Below, piece after piece: positions 29,133 to 41,271 of a DNA stretch of 64,000 nucleotides. Numbering within the stretch: position 1 is the stretch's first letter; every line of letters begins with the position of its first letter. Made by a program: the position numbers and the translations under genes. The notes below the pieces were generated by a model. It was not told the origin of the DNA. It made no database searches and was given only the letters and a program-made list of their open reading frames with translations. This DNA is from Escherichia phage ECP2303: sequence record PP261279.1. One strand, 5' to 3'.

Positions 29133-29474
29133 CTACTCAAGGTCTTCAGAGTCAAGCTCAAAAAGAATCAAACTGTGCATGCCTGCAGAGAGATCAACAC
29201 ACCCTGCAACAATAAGGGTTTGATAGTAAGGTTCAGCACCCTCAATATCTTCGTTAAAATCCACAACAAGGTAGTCACCTTTGTTAAAGGTGTATTTGTC
29301 CGATGTAAACGCAAAACCTGCCCAGTCACCTACTGCAGGATCTTTATCAGTCACCTTTGTTAGCAGTAGATCTTTTTCACGAGATCTTTTAGTAAAATCG
29401 TGAATCACAACATCCTTCTCTTCAGGAGTCGGATTGCCACACACGTAGTTAACGATATTTCTCCACAAACTCAT
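29133..29474 (-). CDS. hypothetical protein
   Basis: 113-aa ORF; 4-nt overlap with the Dda-like gene. Confidence 0.6.
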   Translation of the reverse strand: MSLWRNIVNYVCGNPTPEEKDVVIHDFTKRSREKDLLLTKVTDKDPAVGDWAGFAFTSDKYTFNKGDYLVVDFNEDIEGAEPYYQTLIVAGCVDLSAGMHSLILFELDSEDLE

Positions 29475-30841
29475 ACGTCCCCCTTTTCTGCTCTAGTTTC
29501 AAAATCTTTCCTGACTTTCTCGTCTAAGCCAGGAAAAGTTGTATTATAAAACTCTACGACTCTCGGGTCAACAATAATATCCACCTCTCTTAATGGACGC
29601 AACAAGTTTATTCCTTGTATCGTCTTAACCCGACTCAAGGCAACATACGTCATTCCGGGAGAGAAAGCTCCGTTCTTTCCGAGGTCCAGGTTGTAACAAT
29701 CTAGCGTAAGTCCTTGACTTTTATGTGATGTTACTGCGTACCCTGATTTCAAAGGGAGTTGCTCATAAGACCCGATCACAACCCTCTCTATGAACTTCTC
29801 CATCTTCCTTTCGGCAATATTGTACCTCTGGGAAGGTTTGTACTCGTTATTCTCCCACAATCTCGGCTCAATTTCAACCTGTGCCCCGTCTTCCAGCTCA
29901 ACTACTACAGATTTGGTCTTGAATTTTACCACTGTGGCGCGTGTCCCGTTGACATAGTACGGAACTTTGTGGGTAGGGTCAACATCGTTTGAGGTTATCA
30001 TAACCTTCATCCCTATCTTCAGCCTCATTTCCTGCTCCACAGGCAGTGTGGAAGGGAACTTACCTTTCATTTTACCAATGTAGGTCTTCTCTGGGGCCTT
30101 GATGGCATCATAGAAACGTCTGTTCACCTCCTCTGCTTGCTTATTGGTGGCACAGATGGTCAAGGCATCTGTTGGGACACCACCATGATAGCAACGAGTG
30201 TTAAGCTCTGCTACAACCTCTTTTATGCGACGACCTTCACGAACACAGTTCAACATTGTGGCGAAGCGAACAGATTCCTGACGGAACTGGTCTACTAAGG
30301 CTATATTGTGAAGATTAAGATCCTCCCAAGATTTTGTATAGCAACACAGATCTGTGTGGTAGAAGTTGAAGTAGGCCTCCTTCTCCATAGAAGAGACAAC
30401 TGGAGGTGCTTGGTAGAAGTCTCCAAACAATAACACCTGAATGCCTCCGAAAGGCTTGTCATTTTTCCGAAGAAAGCGGAGTTTTCTATCCATCTCTATG
30501 AACTTGTCAGCACGGATCATGGAGATTTCATCGATAATTAGGATGGTAAATGCCTTGCTTTTCAGAGGCTTTGCTGTTTTTGCCCTTATTGCTGTCCAGT
30601 CTGACTCCATGCTCACACCTGCGGCAAGATCGAAAGTTCGGTGAGCTGTTGCTCCATTAACGTTTAAAGCGGCTACCCCTGTCGGGGCAACCGTTATGCA
30701 AGAGTCTCCATACATGGACTGGATTATGTTGATAAGATATGTCTTCCCTGTTCCACCAGGTCCACTTACGAAGACATTCTCACCGCTCATGATTGCAACA
30801 AGGGCAGCATCTGTGCCTACATCGTACTGCCCTTTTTCCAT
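29471..30841 (-). CDS. dda: SF1B DNA helicase, Dda/Pif1/RecD-like
   Basis: 456 aa; Walker A GPGGTGKTY; VAPTGVAA; Walker B DEISMI; VTSHKSQGLTLD. Confidence 0.8.
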   Translation of the reverse strand: MEKGQYDVGTDAALVAIMSGENVFVSGPGGTGKTYLINIIQSMYGDSCITVAPTGVAALNVNGATAHRTFDLAAGVSMESDWTAIRAKTAKPLKSKAFTILIIDEISMIRADKFIEMDRKLRFLRKNDKPFGGIQVLLFGDFYQAPPVVSSMEKEAYFNFYHTDLCCYTKSWEDLNLHNIALVDQFRQESVRFATMLNCVREGRRIKEVVAELNTRCYHGGVPTDALTICATNKQAEEVNRRFYDAIKAPEKTYIGKMKGKFPSTLPVEQEMRLKIGMKVMITSNDVDPTHKVPYYVNGTRATVVKFKTKSVVVELEDGAQVEIEPRLWENNEYKPSQRYNIAERKMEKFIERVVIGSYEQLPLKSGYAVTSHKSQGLTLDCYNLDLGKNGAFSPGMTYVALSRVKTIQGINLLRPLREVDIIVDPRVVEFYNTTFPGLDEKVRKDFETRAEKGDV

Positions 30842-34554: not shown

Positions 34555-34576
34555 ATCCCCGCCGAAGCGGGGGAGG
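34555..34576 (-). terminator. terminator/attenuator hairpin
   Basis: Minus-sense cccccgcttcggcgggg followed by attttctattt; same stem-loop as 60698-60713. Confidence 0.45.
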
Positions 34577-34975: not shown

Positions 34976-36160
34976 TTAAGCTTTAGCCAAAATGGCGCTA
35001 AACTCTTCACCAAACTCTTTTACAATCTTCATCAGGTTTGGGTATGCTTTGATCAGCTGAGCAACGATCTTGTCACGACCTTTACCGATAAGCAAGGCAT
35101 TTCCTAAGGCATTAGGTTTCATCATCGCCATAAAGACTGAAAATACAAAATCTCGGTTCTCGTCCTTGAAGTTTTCCCAAAGGAAATCGAGAAAGTTTGC
35201 CACACAGCTAACAAGATCTTCGTCGGAGATACTTGCATTTTCCATCATATTACGAATAGCGATGCAACCTTCAGATCCAAGAATCCACAAGATGTCTGGC
35301 TGTTTAGGACCTACGTATTCTTTGCAACCTCCTGCCATAATCCGACCGATTTCCGGTAAGTTGCGTTTCTTGGTGTGGTAAGTCCAGATCTCTACCGCTG
35401 CAGTGTGACCAATAGCACCTTGCAGAAGAACACGGGCCATAGCGTCAGAAATAATACCGCTGTCAAAATCGTGCAAGATATCAGATGCAGCAACCCAAGA
35501 TCGCGGTGTGGCAAAAGATGGACAATTAATCTCAGCCATGGCCTCATAATTATCGATAGCTGATGGAACTCTTTTCAGATATCCAATTACAGAGGAGTGC
35601 ACCCCATTAAGGAATGCGTAGTCCTCAATAAACACCTCTGCATTGCTTGTAACCTCTACAATGATAAAACGGTTAGCCAGAGGGGCTTCGAGCGCCGAAA
35701 GAACCGCACCATCTGTAGAACGGTTACCAGCAGCCACAAAAACAGACCCCTTAGGGAATGCATAAGTACCGCACTTGTGGTCAAGCATAATTTGCATTGC
35801 AACCTTTTGTAGGTAGTTATCTGCATGAGTGAGCTCATCCAGAAAGATAATTCCGCTCCAGTCAGGATCCGCAGGCCAAAATTCTGGAATTGCAAACACT
35901 GTACGTGTAGTTCCATCCGCTTCTACAGGGATAGGTAGCCCAGATAAGTCGGCAGGATCTTTATCTGACAGCCGCACGTCAACAAGGTTGTCATCTCGCT
36001 CACCGAACATATTATCAGCGATCTGCTTCATCACCTGGCTTTTACCTACACCCATTGGTCCCAAAATTAGGACAGATCGGCTATGACGTTGGGCAAACTG
36101 AATAATAGCTGGCAACTCACGGACAGTGATTTGACCACTTTCGAATACGTTTCTTGACAT
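34976..36160 (-). CDS. MoxR-like AAA+ ATPase (AAA_5-type)
   Basis: 394 aa; Walker A LILGPMGVGKSQ; Walker B IIFLDELTHA; AAGNRS. Confidence 0.75.
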   Translation of the reverse strand: MSRNVFESGQITVRELPAIIQFAQRHSRSVLILGPMGVGKSQVMKQIADNMFGERDDNLVDVRLSDKDPADLSGLPIPVEADGTTRTVFAIPEFWPADPDWSGIIFLDELTHADNYLQKVAMQIMLDHKCGTYAFPKGSVFVAAGNRSTDGAVLSALEAPLANRFIIVEVTSNAEVFIEDYAFLNGVHSSVIGYLKRVPSAIDNYEAMAEINCPSFATPRSWVAASDILHDFDSGIISDAMARVLLQGAIGHTAAVEIWTYHTKKRNLPEIGRIMAGGCKEYVGPKQPDILWILGSEGCIAIRNMMENASISDEDLVSCVANFLDFLWENFKDENRDFVFSVFMAMMKPNALGNALLIGKGRDKIVAQLIKAYPNLMKIVKEFGEEFSAILAKA

Positions 36161-36429
36161 TAGTAAAAGTCCTCTACTTGTGTGTAAGTGTTTTCAAAGT
36201 TTTCCAAAACAGATATCACATCGGATCTGTCAATATCATACGTGACTCTCCAGTTGTACGCAACCCTTTCTGCTGTTGCCTCTTCTGGCGCTAGTCGTCT
36301 GCTGGCATAAAAGAGTGTTGGAGTACACTTTCTTGCTTGCCCTCTAACTTTCCCATAATAATATCTGTGAATATCTTTGTCAAAATTTAACTCTTTTTCT
36401 GCACGAAGTTCATATTGCTGGTATAACAT
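36160..36429 (-). CDS. hypothetical protein
   Basis: 89-aa ORF; ATGA overlap with the MoxR-like gene. Confidence 0.55.
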   Translation of the reverse strand: MLYQQYELRAEKELNFDKDIHRYYYGKVRGQARKCTPTLFYASRRLAPEEATAERVAYNWRVTYDIDRSDVISVLENFENTYTQVEDFY

Positions 36430-36473
36430 CTCTACTACTCCTTAAGCAGCATCCTTGCCGCCATTCCTGCCCA

Positions 36474-36854
36474 CTAAAATGCAGTCCGAATCCAGACAAG
36501 GTTCTTATCTGCCCAATCATAGAGGCAAGTCATTGCACTATTGAATTGCTCACACGGAGGATAATCTTCTTCCATCTGACGCATAGCAGAGCCTTGTGGG
36601 TAAAGCTCCCGTGCTGCAAACCACGCGTCGTAGTCATCAACGGTGTCGAAGTAGTATACAACATCCTCCAACTCAGGATCGAACTTTGAACTATCAGGAT
36701 CCAGTTGTTCAGGGAACTTGGAGCGTAACTTGCCAGCCACAATACTTGCCAACTCGCTAACATGCTTATTGTCCCACTCCATTAGCTTCCCGTCTTCAGT
36801 GATGCGTCCTAACCACTGATCATGAAGGTCAACTGTTGTCTTCCACCGGGCCAT
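36474..36854 (-). CDS. hypothetical protein
   Basis: 126-aa ORF. Confidence 0.6.
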   Translation of the reverse strand: MARWKTTVDLHDQWLGRITEDGKLMEWDNKHVSELASIVAGKLRSKFPEQLDPDSSKFDPELEDVVYYFDTVDDYDAWFAARELYPQGSAMRQMEEDYPPCEQFNSAMTCLYDWADKNLVWIRTAF

Positions 36855-36856
36855 TA

Positions 36857-37114
36857 TCAGTCCACCTCTTCTTCTCGTTGTAGTTCAAGATACCCGTAGG
36901 TCTGGACATCTTCAAGGGTGTGGAACTCCCCATCTGCCGCTAATGCACGAACAACTTGGCACAAAACCTTATGAGGAACTTCATCCAGACCAAGATTCAG
37001 TGCAGGGAACACCTTATCTAAGTCAACAAAATAAATGAACTGTAGCTCACCAGCTTCAAAAGGTGTATCTTCAATAAACATCTTCTCGGCATTAGTCAAG
37101 ATCTGCACTTTCAT
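36857..37114 (-). CDS. hypothetical acidic protein
   Basis: 85-aa ORF. Confidence 0.55.
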   Translation of the reverse strand: MKVQILTNAEKMFIEDTPFEAGELQFIYFVDLDKVFPALNLGLDEVPHKVLCQVVRALAADGEFHTLEDVQTYGYLELQREEEVD

Positions 37115-37470
37115 TATTCTACCTCCTCTTCTTTTTCTTCGGCATTAGTTTCATGGCTACCCCACTCTGGAGTTTCCACCTCGATAGTAAACTCACGCAC
37201 TACACGGTAATTGCCCATGAAGCGCTCCACTTCGTCAAGGCTTATGGAGAGGCCATTGGCAACCAGGTCTGCAGCACCCTCTTCTACCAGGTAGTCCAGA
37301 TTGGCTTCCAGAGCTTCAGGTTCAAACCCTGTCAATGCAATCAGATAACCTTTCCCTTCATCAGGGAGGACAATACATCCCAACTGATTTTCTTTAAAAA
37401 GGCAGTGACCATCATTATTGATTGGGTGTTCATTGCAGTAAATAGCTGCACGATAAGTAACTTTAGACAT
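37114..37470 (-). CDS. hypothetical acidic protein
   Basis: Start at MSKVTYR... with RBS aaggag. Confidence 0.6.
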   Translation of the reverse strand: MSKVTYRAAIYCNEHPINNDGHCLFKENQLGCIVLPDEGKGYLIALTGFEPEALEANLDYLVEEGAADLVANGLSISLDEVERFMGNYRVVREFTIEVETPEWGSHETNAEEKEEEVE

Positions 37471-37483
37471 CGGCAAGGTCTCC

Positions 37484-37762
37484 TTAGGCAATTGTCATTT
37501 TACATTCTTGAAATTTTAACACAAGACGGTGATTGTGTCTAGTGTCTAAAAAGATTTTTTCAACCATCAGGCACACGGTATAACCGTCCATCTTGTTGAC
37601 AACAAAATCTCCAGGGTAAGGGAGAGTGTCCCCTGGGCTGGGAAAGCATAACCCGCTCAGAAAGGCATCATCGGTGGTGGACTTAATGGATTTCCACACA
37701 CTATCTGCCTGAACATTCTCACCAACATAATATACACTACCACATGACTTCATCATAGTCAA
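37484..37762 (-). CDS. hypothetical protein
   Basis: 92-aa ORF. Confidence 0.55.
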   Translation of the reverse strand: MTMMKSCGSVYYVGENVQADSVWKSIKSTTDDAFLSGLCFPSPGDTLPYPGDFVVNKMDGYTVCLMVEKIFLDTRHNHRLVLKFQECKMTIA

Positions 37763-38657
37763 TCTCCGCGTAAATTAAACTGGAATCAGTATACTTCTTT
37801 AATGGGTAAATATCCTGTCCATAGATGCAATCATTAAACACCTCATCTACCCAAAGGCTACGCTTATATCCCATCATTTCTAAAACACTCATCTCTTCTT
37901 CGGTAAACTTATCACCACTCTTGCAAGATGTCAATACCTCATTTTGAACTCTTGCTACCTCGAATCGGTTATTGGCAATATCGCTATTGGCGATCAAATA
38001 CTCACCTAGAGGGTGTGCGGCATTAAAGATGCACAGTGGACGGCTGACGTAATAGTCTCCGGGTGTATAAAAATTGTTGAGGTCTTTCACTAGAACATTC
38101 TTATCAGTCACTTCATTTATAACATCATGCATATCGCACATCTTTATATGTTTGAGGATTCCATCTCCCATCACAAAATAAAAACTTGCTGAGACACTTT
38201 CGGCATAGATCTTACTAGATCCGTTGTAGTTGTATTTTACTCGGATGCTAACGGGGGTTTTTCCTGTCGCGTTAGCCATCATCCAAAGAAATGGCAGCTC
38301 ATACTTCTCCTCTGAGGAAACAAAAGGTGAGGTAGCCAGAGATCGAAAACCTCCAGAGAAGTTGAAAGTTACAGAACCGCTCCGGCGGTATGATACCGCG
38401 TATTCTACTTTTATATCGACGTACCCATTGGAATAGGTGTGTCCTTCATTATCTAAATATGTCCACTTATCAGACCCAGATACCAATCTACGCTCAATAA
38501 CCTTCATCACTACAGGAATTAGTGGGTTGGTACAAACCGCTTTTGAAGTAGCTTTATCATCTAAAGCCTCGTAAATTGCAGAAAGGATGTCCCCAGCTGA
38601 AAGATTGGTTGTTATGTCCTGTTTCCACCGCGTACTAAAACTGTTAAGATTTGCCAT
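37737..38657 (-). CDS. hypothetical protein (first gene of the leftward operon)
   Basis: 306-aa ORF directly downstream of the minus-strand promoter at 38698-38726. Confidence 0.65.
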   Translation of the reverse strand: MANLNSFSTRWKQDITTNLSAGDILSAIYEALDDKATSKAVCTNPLIPVVMKVIERRLVSGSDKWTYLDNEGHTYSNGYVDIKVEYAVSYRRSGSVTFNFSGGFRSLATSPFVSSEEKYELPFLWMMANATGKTPVSIRVKYNYNGSSKIYAESVSASFYFVMGDGILKHIKMCDMHDVINEVTDKNVLVKDLNNFYTPGDYYVSRPLCIFNAAHPLGEYLIANSDIANNRFEVARVQNEVLTSCKSGDKFTEEEMSVLEMMGYKRSLWVDEVFNDCIYGQDIYPLKKYTDSSLIYAEIDYDEVMW

Positions 38658-38697
38658 AAGTAAGTGCTCCTATGTTAGTTTTCTTTCGAATGGGTGC

Positions 38698-38726
38698 ACT
38701 ATATTGTGGAGTTAGAGTAAAGTCAA
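38698..38726 (-). promoter_or_regulatory. sigma70-like promoter for the leftward operon
   Basis: Minus-sense TTGACT-17 nt-TATAGT. Confidence 0.6.
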
Positions 38727-38745
38727 CACGTTTTTGATGTTGACA
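38722..38745. promoter_or_regulatory. operator-like inverted repeat shared by the divergent promoters
   Basis: GTCAACAcgtttttgaTGTTGAC overlapping both -35 elements. Confidence 0.45.
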
Positions 38746-38768
38746 TCTGTTGAGACAATTGATACGAT
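38740..38768 (+). promoter_or_regulatory. sigma70-like promoter for the rightward operon
   Basis: TTGACA-17 nt-TACGAT. Confidence 0.55.
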
Positions 38769-38799
38769 TTCTTCACTTACAGAGCACGAGAGACGACGC

Positions 38800-39777
38800 A
38801 TGAATCTTGAAAAATATTATACACCAGAAGAGTTAGAGCGCTTGCTCAAAAAATATAGACGCAAACAGAATAACGCACGGAAACGAGATATAGAGTTCGA
38901 CCTGTCATGGGAAGAATACCTCCTATTTGGTAAAAAACTTTTAGGAGATGGAGTATGCGACTATACCCTTATACCTTTTGACATGCACACAGATGAAAAC
39001 GGGCTGGGGAATCCTTTCTACCCATCTTTGGAGCGTATAGATGATGAAGGTCCTTACGCAATTGACAATTGTTGTGTGGTAGGGTTGAGGTGCAATGCTC
39101 TGAAAGACTGTCTGGTAGATAAAAAGACTGCAATCCTGATTAAAGACAAAACTGATCGAAAAATTGTCCAGCAGATGATGCTCCACCTGAGTGAAGAGCG
39201 TATGGAGAAGTTGAAAGGTGATTATACTTTTGAAGATTTCATCTTGCAATACGGGACAGAAGAAGATAAACTAGCACTATTTGACGAAGAGGAAGAAGAT
39301 ATGTCACCGATGCAGGATTTTAAAAATTTCATGGCTGATCGTGCAGCCAACAAACACATTTCAGACATCGTAAACGAGACTGTGACAGAAGAAATTGAAG
39401 AACAGACATCTGAAGAGGAAAAAGAGCCTCAGGTGGTTGAAGAGGAGATTGCAGAAGAGGTTCCTGCACTGCCTGATGATGTTGAGATTGCTAAGGCTTA
39501 CACTTTCTATTGTCAAACGTTCTACGATGCAGGTATGAAAGTTGACCTGTCGTTCAGCCAATTTAAGAGTTCGTATATTCGCAAATGCTGTGCTTTAACT
39601 GGTGAACGTCTCGGAGCTGGACTTAAACCACTGTTGGTGACCGACTGGAATAAAGGTTTCACTAAAGGAAACTTTATGGTAGTATCTCCAATTATGGAGA
39701 AAGCTATGACAGATCTTATGAAGACCACCCGCATGACAATGACCGAGTTGGCAGGTATTTTCAAACACGTTAAATAA
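38800..39777 (+). CDS. HNH-endonuclease-like domain protein
   Basis: ORF-track frame from 38734; start moved to the ATG at 38800 because the first ATG overlaps the -35; CDY...SLERIDDEGPY..DNCCVVGLRCNALK resembles an HNH core. Confidence 0.45.
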   Translation: MNLEKYYTPEELERLLKKYRRKQNNARKRDIEFDLSWEEYLLFGKKLLGDGVCDYTLIPFDMHTDENGLGNPFYPSLERIDDEGPYAIDNCCVVGLRCNALKDCLVDKKTAILIKDKTDRKIVQQMMLHLSEERMEKLKGDYTFEDFILQYGTEEDKLALFDEEEEDMSPMQDFKNFMADRAANKHISDIVNETVTEEIEEQTSEEEKEPQVVEEEIAEEVPALPDDVEIAKAYTFYCQTFYDAGMKVDLSFSQFKSSYIRKCCALTGERLGAGLKPLLVTDWNKGFTKGNFMVVSPIMEKAMTDLMKTTRMTMTELAGIFKHVK

Positions 39778-39810
39778 TGACAGGGGCCATTGGCCCCTTC
39801 TGGAGTTTTA

Positions 39811-41271
39811 ATGGATAGCAGAAGTTCAGAAATCATTGCCTCACAGAAAGATGATGCCCTGAGAATGTTGCAGGCTGCACGTATGTATCTCCTTGAAAAG
39901 CTGCCGTTTTATGGCACACTGCTGTCAGGATTGCAGTTCGTAGAAAACCACACATGGTGCTCCACCATGGCAACCGACCATAAACGCATCTATTACAGCC
40001 CTGAGTTCATTATGGGATTGGCTGATGAACGCAAGGTTATTCTTAAGGCTTCTCTAACTGACGAACAGTTTGAGATGGCTGAGGTTTTCTATTCCCTCAA
40101 ATCTGTGAAAGAGGTGGCTTTTCTTCTGTCACACGAGGTGGGGCATATTATCTGTGATCACCTGGTCCGTGGTAAAAGCTTCGAGCCGGAACTGTTTAAT
40201 ATTGCTTGTGATCATGTTATCAACACAGGTCTTGTGGTTGACTTTAGCAAGCCTCCCTGTGTTTTCTTCCCGAAGGGGAAAAGCACTACGTTCGTGAAAG
40301 GTAAGCCTTTTGGTTTCTTAGCCAGCTGCTACTGCGACATGAGGTTTCATGGATGGATTGCTGAGAACGTCTATGCGGTTCTTGATAAGCAAAGAGATCA
40401 GAATAACGGTAAAAGTAAGAGCGGTAAAGGTGAGAACTCTCAAGGGGATAAGCGACAAACCGATGATCACATGAGTGGGAACGGTGGCACCAGCGATGAT
40501 CTTGGAAAGGCTATGGGGTATGATCAGCCACAACCTGTAATCAGCCAATCTGATAAAGATCAGGCCATGCAAGACTCTGGTGACATGCTGGAAGCAGCAA
40601 TGCAAGCTTCCGGAGGTCGTTGCCCCGAGGCGGTGCGTGAGTTTGTCAAGAACAGAGGTAAGCCTGTAATCAACTATATAGACATCATTAAGCAACGCAT
40701 GTTGTCTAAACGAAAGGCCGAACTGACCTACAGAAAACCTGGTCGCCGATCTGGGTCTTTGACCAGCACAATGCGAAAAGTTGGGGCTATAAACAAGAAC
40801 CAGCACGTTATTGTTCCTGGTCGTAATCCGGAAAACACCATAGATATTGTGGTAGCTTTAGACGTTTCTGGCTCGATATCTCAAAGAACTTTAAAGAAAA
40901 TGTTCAATGAAATCACCGGATTGTGCAATCTGTATAAAGAGTTTAAGGTTACAATGTTCTGTTGGTCAACTGAAGTCGGAGAGGTTAAAGTATATACTCG
41001 CGGCAACATAGACGAAATGATCAACTATGAGGTCCACTCAACATGGGGCACAACAGCTGCTTGCGTGTTCGAGTATCTGGATGCCAACATACCAAATGCA
41101 AAAGATGTCATCGTCCTGACCGACCTATACTTTGAGCATAACTTTGAACAAAAGGCTGTTGACAACAAGTGGAAAAAGTACGATACTTTATGGGTTCTCA
41201 CCGAAGGGTATAATAAAAATTATATCCCTAGCTTTGGTAAAACTGTGGAATTAATCGAGTACGCTAAGTAA
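39811..41271 (+). CDS. vWA-domain protein with N-terminal HExxH putative metallopeptidase domain
   Basis: HExxH in LLSHEVGHIICDH; MIDAS-like DxSxS in VVALDVSGSIS; ATG at 39811 after ggag. Confidence 0.7.
   Translation: MDSRSSEIIASQKDDALRMLQAARMYLLEKLPFYGTLLSGLQFVENHTWCSTMATDHKRIYYSPEFIMGLADERKVILKASLTDEQFEMAEVFYSLKSVKEVAFLLSHEVGHIICDHLVRGKSFEPELFNIACDHVINTGLVVDFSKPPCVFFPKGKSTTFVKGKPFGFLASCYCDMRFHGWIAENVYAVLDKQRDQNNGKSKSGKGENSQGDKRQTDDHMSGNGGTSDDLGKAMGYDQPQPVISQSDKDQAMQDSGDMLEAAMQASGGRCPEAVREFVKNRGKPVINYIDIIKQRMLSKRKAELTYRKPGRRSGSLTSTMRKVGAINKNQHVIVPGRNPENTIDIVVALDVSGSISQRTLKKMFNEITGLCNLYKEFKVTMFCWSTEVGEVKVYTRGNIDEMINYEVHSTWGTTAACVFEYLDANIPNAKDVIVLTDLYFEHNFEQKAVDNKWKKYDTLWVLTEGYNKNYIPSFGKTVELIEYAK

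Follow-up and report, generated by a model that had tools for sequence, protein, structure and literature searches.

A MoxR-type AAA+ ATPase and a metallopeptidase-vWA protein encoded by Escherichia phage ECP2303 on balance probably make up a conserved two-subunit machine of the N4 gp24/gp25 type, whose genes were separated by a rearrangement and whose role would be the neutralization of host immunity. The analysed window, a stretch of 64,000 nucleotides of record PP261279.1, originates from an rV5-like Vequintavirus and is 100% identical to phage ECP2309. It contains the ATPase gene on the minus strand (34976..36160) and the peptidase-vWA gene on the plus strand (39811..41271), 3.65 kb apart and with seven genes between them. 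Both open reading frames, as located in the original prediction, match coding sequences deposited for ECP2309, rV5 and Bas54, which are named 'ATPase' and, by mislabelling, 'HNH endonuclease' in ECP2309, ORF4 ('MoxR ATPase') and ORF12 in rV5, and bas54_0063 and bas54_0055 in Bas54. The pair is found next to sigma-70 promoters and to rIIA and Srd-like genes, far from the structural module; the promoter type and these neighbours suggest that it resides in an early region.

Domain organization and relatives of the two proteins

The ATPase, a protein of 394 residues of the N4 gp24 type, is a MoxR-type AAA+ ATPase. In an alignment of 40 sequences of its family, every AAA+ catalytic motif is present and conserved, including Walker A (G34-P-M-G-V-G-K-S41; 36038..36061, minus strand) with invariant G37, G39, K40 and S41, Walker B (D108-E109; 35834..35839, minus strand) with invariant L107, D108 and E109, and the likewise invariant residues N146 (sensor 1), R147, R164 and R220. 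The protein matches phrog_1297 ('ATPase') with an E-value of 2e-110. Its initial classification as AAA_5 was not recovered directly, because AAA_5 (16.7 bits compared to a cut-off of 22) and other AAA models of Pfam score below their cut-offs, but it holds by way of relatives at E~1e-44, for which AAA_3 and AAA_5 are among the precomputed Pfam matches, and by the described motifs and the predicted fold. The AlphaFold (AF2) model (pLDDT 85.7) displays the helix-2-insert and pre-sensor-1 hairpins and finds its best Foldseek matches in NorQ, including NorQ-NorD vWA complexes, and CbbQ.

The second protein, which belongs to the N4 gp25 type and whose ATG is preceded at a distance of 5 nt by a GGAG ribosome-binding site, comprises 486 residues. 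As judged from its sequence, it is a DUF2201_N zincin with putative peptidase activity, fused by a flexible linker to a vWA domain, in line with the initial description of a vWA protein with an N-terminal HExxH domain. Matches to DUF2201_N (98.7 bits, cut-off 23.2) and DUF2201/VWA-like (43.7 bits, cut-off 26.4) are both above the Pfam thresholds. The predicted zinc-binding and catalytic motif (H108-E109-V-G-H112 and H117; 40132..40161, plus strand) contains two histidines, H108 and H112, that are invariant in 68 diverse family members, while E109 and H117 are at least 90% conserved. The MIDAS (D351-V-S353-G-S355; 40861..40875, plus strand) is completed by T414 (41050-41052) and D438 (41122-41124), with all residues being invariant in the family except for T414, which is at least 90% conserved. 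Fold searches with this protein are dominated by vWA matches, and its C-terminal domain matches vWA folds including the one of NorD.

The order of N-domain, disordered linker and C-terminal vWA parallels the architecture of NorD, in which the vWA plugs the pore of NorQ and acidic target residues are bound by the MIDAS. Despite this resemblance to the bacterial MoxR ATPase and vWA adaptor pairs NorQ/NorD and CbbQ/CbbO, the identity of the phage ATPase is only 16-20% and it carries an extra helical C-terminal extension of ~120 residues. Its partner contains a zincin peptidase in place of the N-domain of NorD or CbbO and a minimal vWA domain (~135 aa, ~15 kDa compared to ~33 kDa in these adaptors), whose model exhibits no obvious NorD-like 'finger'. 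The clients of NorQ and CbbQ, nitric oxide reductase and Rubisco, are irrelevant to a coliphage.

Among phages, the pair is homologous to N4 gp24 (AAA ATPase) and gp25 (vWFA protein), as reflected in tblastn matches annotated as 'N4 gp24-like' and 'N4 gp25-like'. N4-like phages (Schitoviridae) share the succession of an ATPase and a DUF2201_N-vWA protein, encoded in the same direction by neighbouring or nearly neighbouring genes, unlike in ECP2303, and the identity to these homologues amounts to only ~22-27%. gp24 and gp25 are two of the 14 core genes of N4-like phages and are found in middle transcripts, apart from the late structural genes, whereas their counterparts are non-essential in Bas54. 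Core status is unusual for an anti-defence gene and counts against a counter-defence reading. Both queries also match RaK2-like and other jumbo phages; in group 2.2 jumbo phages, a MoxR protein and a vWA domain fused to an N-terminal metallopeptidase were described as 'chaperone-cochaperone' (Iyer, Anantharaman, Krishnan, Burroughs, Aravind 2021, Viruses 13:63). A MoxR-vWA core in a conflict setting is likewise found in the vWA-MoxR ternary systems, where the effector position is sometimes taken by a metallopeptidase fused to the vWA (Kaur, Burroughs, Iyer, Aravind 2020, eLife 9:e52696). Such systems belong to the host side and occur in multicellular bacteria, whereas the pair described here is phage-borne and does not include a third VMAP, FtsH or beta-propeller component. 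PADLOC defence models matched neither of the two proteins, and bpMoxR produced only a weak match, in a distant cellular relative.

Linkage of the two genes and origin of their separation

The proposed partnership of MoxR-vWA type is mirrored in gene order. In 68 of the 70 viral loci containing both genes, the peptidase-vWA gene is located directly downstream of the ATPase gene in the same direction, and in two it is split from it. Adjacent pairs are also found in jumbo-phage contigs (L007), in a bacterial locus (L009) and in the sister lineages Certrevirus CR9 and phage A73, whereas the split layout is common to Vequintavirus, Mydovirus and Seunavirus. Adjacency is the ancestral state, and the unusual layout in Vequintavirus is a derived rearrangement. 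The two genes are co-inherited, with strongly correlated divergence (mirror-tree r=0.955, Mantel p<=0.0005) that persists in the split lineages, matching record counts per host genus and a dN/dS of about 0.03 for each, as expected for purifying selection. Their conservation in related phages, by which the original prediction could be checked, extends to essentially all ~117 Vequintavirus members. When loci of Vequintavirus and of the Certrevirus type are compared over ~20 kb, the pair constitutes the only conserved genes, save for a RecD-like helicase and SleB in one locus (L014).

The sole intergenic gap between the divergent units is occupied by predicted back-to-back sigma-70-like promoters (38698..38768), at the coordinates where a divergent promoter had been proposed. 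The leftward promoter (TTGACT-17-TATAGT; 38726 to 38698, minus strand) and the rightward promoter (TTGACA-17-TG-TACGAT; 38740 to 38768, plus strand) were identified by sequence match, and bidirectional promoters were also predicted by the authors of the rV5 study, between rV5 genes 10 and 11 (PMC3606486). The accompanying 'operator' did not hold up, as the 23-nt palindrome at 38722-38744 merely consists of the two opposed -35 boxes (GTCAA...TTGAC). An additional strong promoter-like site (TTGACA-17-TATTAT, an 11/12 consensus match; 36355..36383, minus strand) is contained in the open reading frame just upstream of the ATPase, and a terminator-like GC hairpin detected by pattern match (CCCCGCTTCGGCGGGG and a T-rich tail; 34557..34572, minus strand) would end the leftward unit one gene past the ATPase. 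The ATPase segment may have moved across the bidirectional promoter in an ancestor shared by Vequintavirus, Mydovirus and Seunavirus, and the two genes would for this reason no longer be adjacent. Each of them is still located within about 1-2.5 kb of the same promoter region, and their expression probably coincides in the early phase.

Probable role in counter-defence and alternative explanations

Functional evidence comes from a preprint describing a HIDEN-SEQ transposon screen of phage Bas54 (Humolli et al. 2025, bioRxiv 10.1101/2025.11.20.689424), whose ATPase bas54_0063 is amino-acid-identical to the protein of ECP2303, with 0 nonsynonymous differences between the genes. According to this source, bas54_0063 is dispensable on K-12 but needed against the two-gene defence system DS-28, and loss of the gene renders the phage sensitive to cloned DS-28. 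On K-12 neither gene is essential, with hits in 60/64 and 81/86 TA sites of bas54_0063 and bas54_0055, respectively. In the comparison of K-12 with CFE311, bas54_0063 is strongly depleted (log2FC -7.23, q=0) and a supplementary table also lists bas54_0055 (log2FC -2.20, q=0.009), whereas no change is seen for the flanking genes 0053-0054, 0056-0062 and 0064-0067, so that polar effects can be ruled out. Since about 27/227 Bas54 genes are significant in this comparison, bas54_0055 as one extra hit is only suggestive, and its far weaker depletion is not as a strictly obligate two-subunit machine would predict. The authors leave its depletion in the DS-28-carrying host undiscussed. The data support a counter-defence role of the pair, which had been no more than a guess, and together with the earlier jumbo-phage proposal they render outdated the statement that no phage function had been characterized. 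With an identical ATPase being needed against host immunity, the original finding is real, rightly read and for the most part already known.

A rather unlikely alternative holds that the two proteins became uncoupled after the split, with the Vequintavirus ATPase acting without the peptidase-vWA protein, perhaps with bas54_0140 as new partner or specificity factor, and the latter serving a separate, weaker role. The preprint pairs bas54_0063 with bas54_0140, a genus-specific protein of 99 residues found in Vequintavirus only, and not with the metallopeptidase, and the anti-DS-28 genes that it reports from knockouts are 0063 and 0140 but not 0055, which may never have been assayed by deletion because the authors deleted only some hits. 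Besides the very unlike effect sizes, the genes are physically apart and recombine independently within Vequintavirus, with nucleotide identities of ATPase and partner of 97.0/99.7% to BP9 but 97.6/94.2% to Bas54. Conversely, both are also retained in the other two genera with the split layout, Mydovirus and Seunavirus, their divergence is still correlated, purifying selection is equally strong with HExxH and MIDAS intact, and depletion in the same host affects both of them but not their neighbours.

A virion-assembly role, in which the pair would help structural proteins to fold or assemble and to be processed proteolytically, is improbable. It was predicted for the jumbo-phage pair by analogy to the MoxR/vWA system for tail development in Acidianus two-tailed virus (Iyer et al. 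2021, Viruses 13:63), and it would agree with the core status in N4-like phages and with the assembly or maturation functions of most MoxR-vWA systems. Yet insertions at ~94% of TA sites are tolerated on K-12 with no fitness call, unlike in the head genes and most tail genes, which are essential in the same screen. The phenotype was seen specifically with a cloned defence system, the virion proteins named from mass spectrometry of rV5 include neither of the two, and both the genomic surroundings and the middle transcripts of N4 argue against a late function; the Bas54 data point to a conditional anti-defence role dispensable for virion production. Least probable is a remodelling of a metalloenzyme of phage or host, such as one of nucleotide metabolism, with a conditional need set by host physiology instead of immunity, for although NorQ/NorD, CbbQ/CbbO and CobS/CobT offer models, NorQ and CbbQ are the closest structural relatives and the pair in other phages is found amid thymidylate synthase, 5'-3' exonuclease, dUTPase, HD phosphohydrolase and thymidylate kinase, known activase partners lack an invariant HExxH motif, the knockout phenotype recurs on K-12 bearing only the cloned DS-28 genes and no candidate client enzyme is conserved beside the pair between Vequintavirus and Certrevirus.

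In the favoured arrangement of two subunits in one machine, the ATPase would form a hexameric ring on which the C-terminal vWA of the adaptor would dock, with its MIDAS metal holding an acidic residue of the target, and the zincin domain on its flexible linker may cleave this target or the adaptor itself. On laboratory E. coli such a machine would be dispensable, whereas its ATPase would be needed to overcome DS-28, with the peptidase-vWA subunit contributing in the same host. The likeness to FtsH-type AAA+ proteases with zincin domains is one of function and implies no homology. These belong to another AAA+ clade and carry the peptidase fused to the motor instead of on a separate adaptor subunit, and MoxR machines are thought not to thread substrates. 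The coupling of an AAA+ ring to an HExxH peptidase would nevertheless provide energy-dependent, adaptor-targeted proteolysis. The pair represents a widespread and mostly already known phage combination of an ATP-driven motor and a metallopeptidase-adaptor.

Domains and family assignment of the two proteins

The gene at 34976-36160 on the minus strand (rV5 ORF4), which carries the deposited labels 'MoxR ATPase' or 'ATPase', had originally been predicted to encode a MoxR-like AAA_5 ATPase. Motifs, fold and relatives of the protein bear out its MoxR type, whereas a direct match to AAA_5 is not obtained: in the Pfam search, AAA models were reached only below their cut-offs (AAA_5 with 16.7 bits compared to 22) and AAA_3 (PF07726) was not matched. 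The homologues of the protein number thousands. Relatives detected at E~1e-44 (about 34% identity over 85% of the query) show precomputed matches to AAA_3 and AAA_5, which are weak in case of the protein P0077, and a more distant cellular relative passes the cut-offs of both models. The Walker A, Walker B, sensor 1, arginine finger and sensor 2 residues defining a MoxR protein are all present, with GxxGxGKS (residues 34-41), D108-E109, N146, R164 and R220 being invariant across 40 homologues. In an AF2 model of the ATPase (pLDDT 85.7), whose β-hairpins were assigned by reading its DSSP string, strands 75-81 and 84-90 form a helix-2 insert between β2 and the Walker B strand, while the sensor-1 strand is preceded by a short pre-sensor-1 hairpin at about residues 129-134. 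The first 19 ranks of a Foldseek search with this protein are all occupied by NorQ and CbbQ (E-values 5.6e-8 to 6e-6, TM-scores on the target 0.56-0.67). Both are MoxR ATPases partnered with vWA proteins. Together, the conserved motifs, the insert and hairpin, the fold matches and the AAA_3/AAA_5 assignment of its relatives justify placing the protein in the helix-2-insert clade of the MoxR family, for which activity as a hexameric ring is predicted. The start of its gene shares one base with an 89-aa ORF at 36160-36429 (minus), suggesting translational coupling. This small ORF is labelled 'ATPase' in some records (phrog_13164), which we reject since it has no detectable ATPase features; it belongs to a lineage-specific PHROG only and has no homologue beyond the genus.

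The prediction of a vWA protein with an N-terminal HExxH domain at 39811-41271 (plus) was confirmed. The ORF is present and its product matches both DUF2201 models of Pfam above cut-off, DUF2201_N (PF13203, putative metallopeptidase) with 98.7 bits compared to 23.2 and the VWA-like DUF2201 with 43.7 bits compared to 26.4. Among 68 diverse family members, H108 and H112 of the HExxH motif are invariant and E109 and H117 are conserved in at least 90%. The same 68 sequences reveal a complete MIDAS (DxSxS...T...D), with D351, S353, S355 and D438 being invariant and T414 found in at least 90%. The protein displays a Rossmann-like vWA fold and fold searches returned vWA matches only. A family profile yielded weak matches to minigluzincins of the M48 type (MJ1213, E 0.006; M48 peptidase, 0.044; BepA, 0.35), and the conserved H117 and D134 are candidate third zinc ligands. 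The family comprises about 28,000 cluster representatives, and our literature search found no experimental data on any DUF2201_N protein. For both proteins, NCBIfam and PADLOC gave nothing significant, and single-sequence searches of the PDB returned P-loop matches alone or none.

Deposited labels of the second gene range from 'putative metallopeptidase' and 'VWA-like domain containing protein' to 'hypothetical protein' and 'HNH endonuclease', the last of which is wrong. It stems from PHROGs, which tags both phrog_1314 (DUF2201_N and vWA) and phrog_3118, the family of the Srd-like protein at 38734-39777, in this way. The HNH models of Pfam match neither protein, and the combination of DUF2201_N and vWA domains is clear in the former. 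The mislabel has spread to many GenBank and RefSeq records (ECP2309, CR9, GAP31, VLCpiM5a, JES2013 and the V5 RefSeq entry) and is also found at three loci of our collection (L010, L011, L174). In the rV5 record DQ832317 (7756-9217), a 1-nt gap relative to the window breaks the gene into ORF12 and ORF13; all other members of the genus examined have it intact, so that DQ832317 probably contains a sequencing error here. Past the stop of the Srd-like gene and ahead of the ribosome-binding site for the peptidase-vWA protein lies a perfect GC-rich hairpin (GGGGCC-ATT-GGCCCC, 39783-39797). The hairpin lacks a canonical T-run behind it on the plus strand and may thus serve in attenuation, as a processing site or in RNA stability.

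Linkage of the pair and its split in Vequintavirus

The partnership proposed for the two proteins is supported by their genomic linkage. Starting from the ATPase alignment, we gathered 80 viral loci and located both genes by profile HMMs. In 68 of the 70 informative loci, the peptidase-vWA gene is situated directly downstream of the ATPase on the same strand, at a distance of -59 to 547 nt, while the remaining two, one Vequintavirus contig and one Mydovirus-type contig, exhibit a split, divergent layout. In ten loci no partner was found; nine of these run into a contig end within about 200 nt of the ATPase. Adjacent genes are likewise seen in a 578-kb jumbo-phage contig and in a bacterial genome, and profile HMMs detect both proteins in the jumbo-phage contig L007 and the bacterial locus L009. 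Among 71 informative cellular loci, 47 hold the partner, 44 of them in adjacent form and mostly in Campylobacterota. The two proteins are found in the same phage lineages with nearly equal counts per host genus, as illustrated by tblastn searches of 50,697 phage records (ATPase/partner: Escherichia 211/213, Pseudomonas 104/108, Pectobacterium 26/26, Cronobacter 17/17), whose matches include genes annotated as 'N4 gp24-like' (E 1e-17) and 'N4 gp25-like' (E 1e-7) and jumbo-phage pairs. In 73 non-redundant loci, pairwise divergence of the one protein correlates tightly with that of the other (Pearson 0.955, Mantel p<=0.0005), which indicates co-inheritance without independent replacement and does not imply physical contact. 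Within the reach of comparative genomics, ATPase and peptidase-vWA protein are thus partners, and they may well assemble into a complex.

Two cellular observations deserve mention. In a locus of Sulfurovum sp. CS9 (L140, 6559-8948) and 23 similar loci, a 334-aa ATPase of a cellular subfamily passes the AAA_3 and AAA_5 cut-offs and no DUF2201 partner is found within 8 kb; in the former, the ATPase is preceded by an overlapping 462-aa ORF without Pfam match, which is possibly an alternative partner. In the bacterial locus L009 (1-17239, GCA_045600625.1), the pair resides beside a Cdc48-like AAA protein, a 1076-aa SNF2/DEAD helicase with DUF8437, an M50-like protein, a metallophosphatase, a Ser/Thr kinase, a PP2C, a second vWA protein and a JAB protein, in a cluster that looks like a conflict or mobile island.

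In both proteins, the window pair is homologous to gp24 and gp25 of phage N4, which are among the 14 core genes of N4-like phages and part of the middle transcripts in N4, and to the MoxR and metallopeptidase-vWA pair of jumbo phages (Iyer et al., 2021). Among the defining features of this pair type, it lacks only the adjacent, co-directional order with the ATPase upstream. Kaur et al. (2020) described host-side ternary conflict systems with a vWA-MoxR core, in which the third component is VMAP, FtsH or a beta-propeller, none of which lies near the window pair. Since its neighbours contain neither effector domains nor a third ternary component and PADLOC found no match, the pair is not a ternary conflict system.

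In the window, the two genes are located on opposite strands, 3,650 nt apart, within a 7-kb stretch whose identity is 100% with Escherichia phage ECP2309 and 90-98% with about 120 further phages of the rV5 type (Vequintavirus, Vequintavirinae). They had been proposed to belong to opposite operons diverging from a promoter/operator region at 38698-38768, of which the split and the promoters, two divergent sigma-70-like ones, were recovered and the operator was not. The sole gap between the divergent units holds both promoters: a leftward TTGACT-17-TATAGT (38726->38698, minus) and a rightward TTGACA-17-TG-TACGAT (38740->38768, plus), in agreement with the bidirectional promoters predicted for rV5 (PMC3606486). 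The palindrome at 38722-38744, which we considered as a candidate operator, is no more than the two opposed -35 boxes. Pattern matching identified a further strong promoter-like site at 36383->36355 (minus), and a terminator-like hairpin at 34572-34557 (minus) ends the leftward unit one gene past the ATPase. This arrangement would be consistent with early co-expression of both genes; our literature search found neither a relevant transcriptome of Vequintavirus nor an rV5 paper on MoxR. In the same leftward unit, a 1-nt deletion in an A-run at about 37761 relative to ECP2309, Bas54 and BP9 extends a 'putative 1-3 fucosyltransferase'-like ORF (37737-38657, minus) from 299 to 306 aa, so that it overlaps the next gene; the cause is either a true frameshift at the very 3' end or a difference in sequencing.

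Within Vequintavirinae, the adjacent order is retained in Certrevirus CR9 (gp126/gp127), in the 146-kb Certrevirus-type contig L014 and in A73 (A73_51/A73_50), where the pair sits just downstream of a divergent promoter region. In Vequintavirus, Mydovirus (VLCpiM5a) and Seunavirus (GAP31), the ATPase is part of the leftward unit and the peptidase-vWA gene part of the rightward unit, behind an Srd-like gene. The adjacency found in the sister lineages identifies the layout of the window as a secondary rearrangement rather than a difference in homology, with a single event in the common ancestor of the three genera as simplest explanation. In a comparison of about 20 kb between Vequintavirus and CR9, the two proteins are the sole match, with about 35% identity each; compared to L014, the pair is joined by SleB and a RecD-like helicase, both from the other side of the region. 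Both genes evolve under strong purifying selection in Vequintavirus (dN/dS about 0.03). Nucleotide identities of ATPase and partner differ among genome pairs (97.0 and 99.7% with BP9, 97.6 and 94.2% with Bas54), indicating that the two genes now recombine independently.

Conditional requirement in phage Bas54

Functional data are available from transposon-insertion sequencing of Bas54, Escherichia phage MaxBurger (Humolli et al., bioRxiv 10.1101/2025.11.20.689424). The window ATPase differs from bas54_0063 ('MoxR ATPase') by 28 synonymous and no nonsynonymous substitutions and is thus identical in amino acid sequence, while the peptidase-vWA protein and bas54_0055 ('putative metallopeptidase') differ at nine residues. 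On K-12, both genes are non-essential, with 60 of 64 and 81 of 86 TA sites disrupted, as is every gene of the two divergent units, including bas54_0062, the counterpart of the 89-aa ORF (Humolli et al., 2025). The original prediction had considered a host-takeover or counter-defence device. The latter role holds for the ATPase, whose knockout is sensitive to the cloned system DS-28; for the partner, it finds support in a depletion in CFE311 only. DS-28 consists of two genes predicted by DefenseFinder, and its source CFE311 is a uropathogenic strain that carries other systems too. Based on knockouts, bas54_0063 and bas54_0140 are stated to be specifically required against DS-28 (Humolli et al., 2025), a requirement that, given the identity of the two sequences, should apply to the window ATPase as well. 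The supplementary resampling table comparing K-12 BW25113 with CFE311 lists log2 fold changes of -7.23 (q=0) for bas54_0063, -5.48 (q=0) for bas54_0140 and -2.20 (p=0.0009, q=0.009) for bas54_0055, which the authors do not mention in the preprint (Humolli et al., 2025). Genes 0053-0054, 0056-0062 and 0064-0067 are unchanged, which excludes polar effects. With about 27 of 227 genes being significant in this comparison and an effect far below that of the ATPase, the co-depletion of the partner is only suggestive.

The protein bas54_0140, whose gene lies outside the window, comprises 99 aa, has no Pfam match and is confined to Vequintavirus. A set of 16-18 'Campylobacter phage' records (MG0656xx; C15, A12a, C7, C9 and others) holds its gene together with those of the ATPase and the peptidase-vWA protein; over this region, their identity to E. 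coli Vequintavirus is about 97%, and they look like isolates with mislabelled host or contamination. Further downstream on the ATPase strand, the RecD-like helicase (29471-30841, minus) corresponds to bas54_0068, which is non-essential on K-12, strongly depleted in CFE311 (log2 fold change -6.32, q=0) and not addressed in the main text (Humolli et al., 2025); it may serve another conditional or anti-defence function. In supplementary file 9 (Data S6/S7), the sheet 'resampling_K-12_vs_CFE303' repeats the table and console command of the CFE311 sheet (BW vs 311), and the CFE303 data for Bas54 thus appear to be missing from the deposit.

A two-subunit model and its alternatives

Our analysis is best accounted for by a putative two-subunit machine built on the NorQ/NorD plan. 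In NorQ/NorD, the vWA domain plugs the MoxR ring, its MIDAS binds acidic residues of the client, the N-terminal domain confers specificity and a disordered linker is remodelled. The peptidase-vWA protein would be an adaptor of similar layout with a zincin peptidase as N-terminal domain, and ATP-driven remodelling coupled to cleavage of a target, presumably by this domain, is a natural inference. The data leave room for an ATPase that is partly independent of the peptidase-vWA protein, perhaps working with bas54_0140, and the weaker depletion of the partner, -2.2 compared to -7.2, is the main weakness of the two-subunit model. A function in cofactor insertion would fit the nearest structures and the frequent nucleotide-metabolism neighbourhood of the pair but is at odds with its invariant HExxH motif and with the phenotype on cloned DS-28. 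The published prediction of a virion-assembly machine (Iyer et al., 2021) is poorly compatible with the full dispensability of both genes on K-12, their position next to early-type promoters and their absence from the virion proteins named in the proteomics section on rV5.

The two-subunit machine might act more generally as ATP-powered anti-immunity device of phages, in which the MIDAS would capture a defence protein, the ring remodel it and the zincin destroy it, a proposal that we consider tentative and rather unlikely. The captured protein would be a component of DS-28 or a host factor sensed by it, small lineage-specific proteins such as bas54_0140 would serve as target-specificity adaptors, and the split across a bidirectional promoter would allow the two subunits to recombine independently.

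Public records and publications already provided the genes and their annotation, the type of pair and the phenotype of the ATPase. Our work ties the Vequintavirus ATPase to its displaced partner, places the split in the ancestor shared by three genera, points out an unremarked co-depletion of the partner in published data, provides an argument against an assembly role and corrects a widely propagated misannotation. The pair is among the most widely conserved unexplained modules of tailed phages: it is core in the N4-like Schitoviridae and also occurs in Vequintavirinae, in many jumbo phages and in metagenomic phages by the thousands. The rV5-like phages are well suited to experiments in E. coli, where knockout of the ATPase has already given a clean conditional phenotype on DS-28, and its ancestral, co-depleted partner eight genes away makes a two-component mechanism testable where there had been an isolated screen hit. 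For phage-therapy candidates among Vequintavirus, host range may depend on this machine and, if the anti-immunity proposal were true, a widespread pair of unknown function would constitute a new class of counter-defence.
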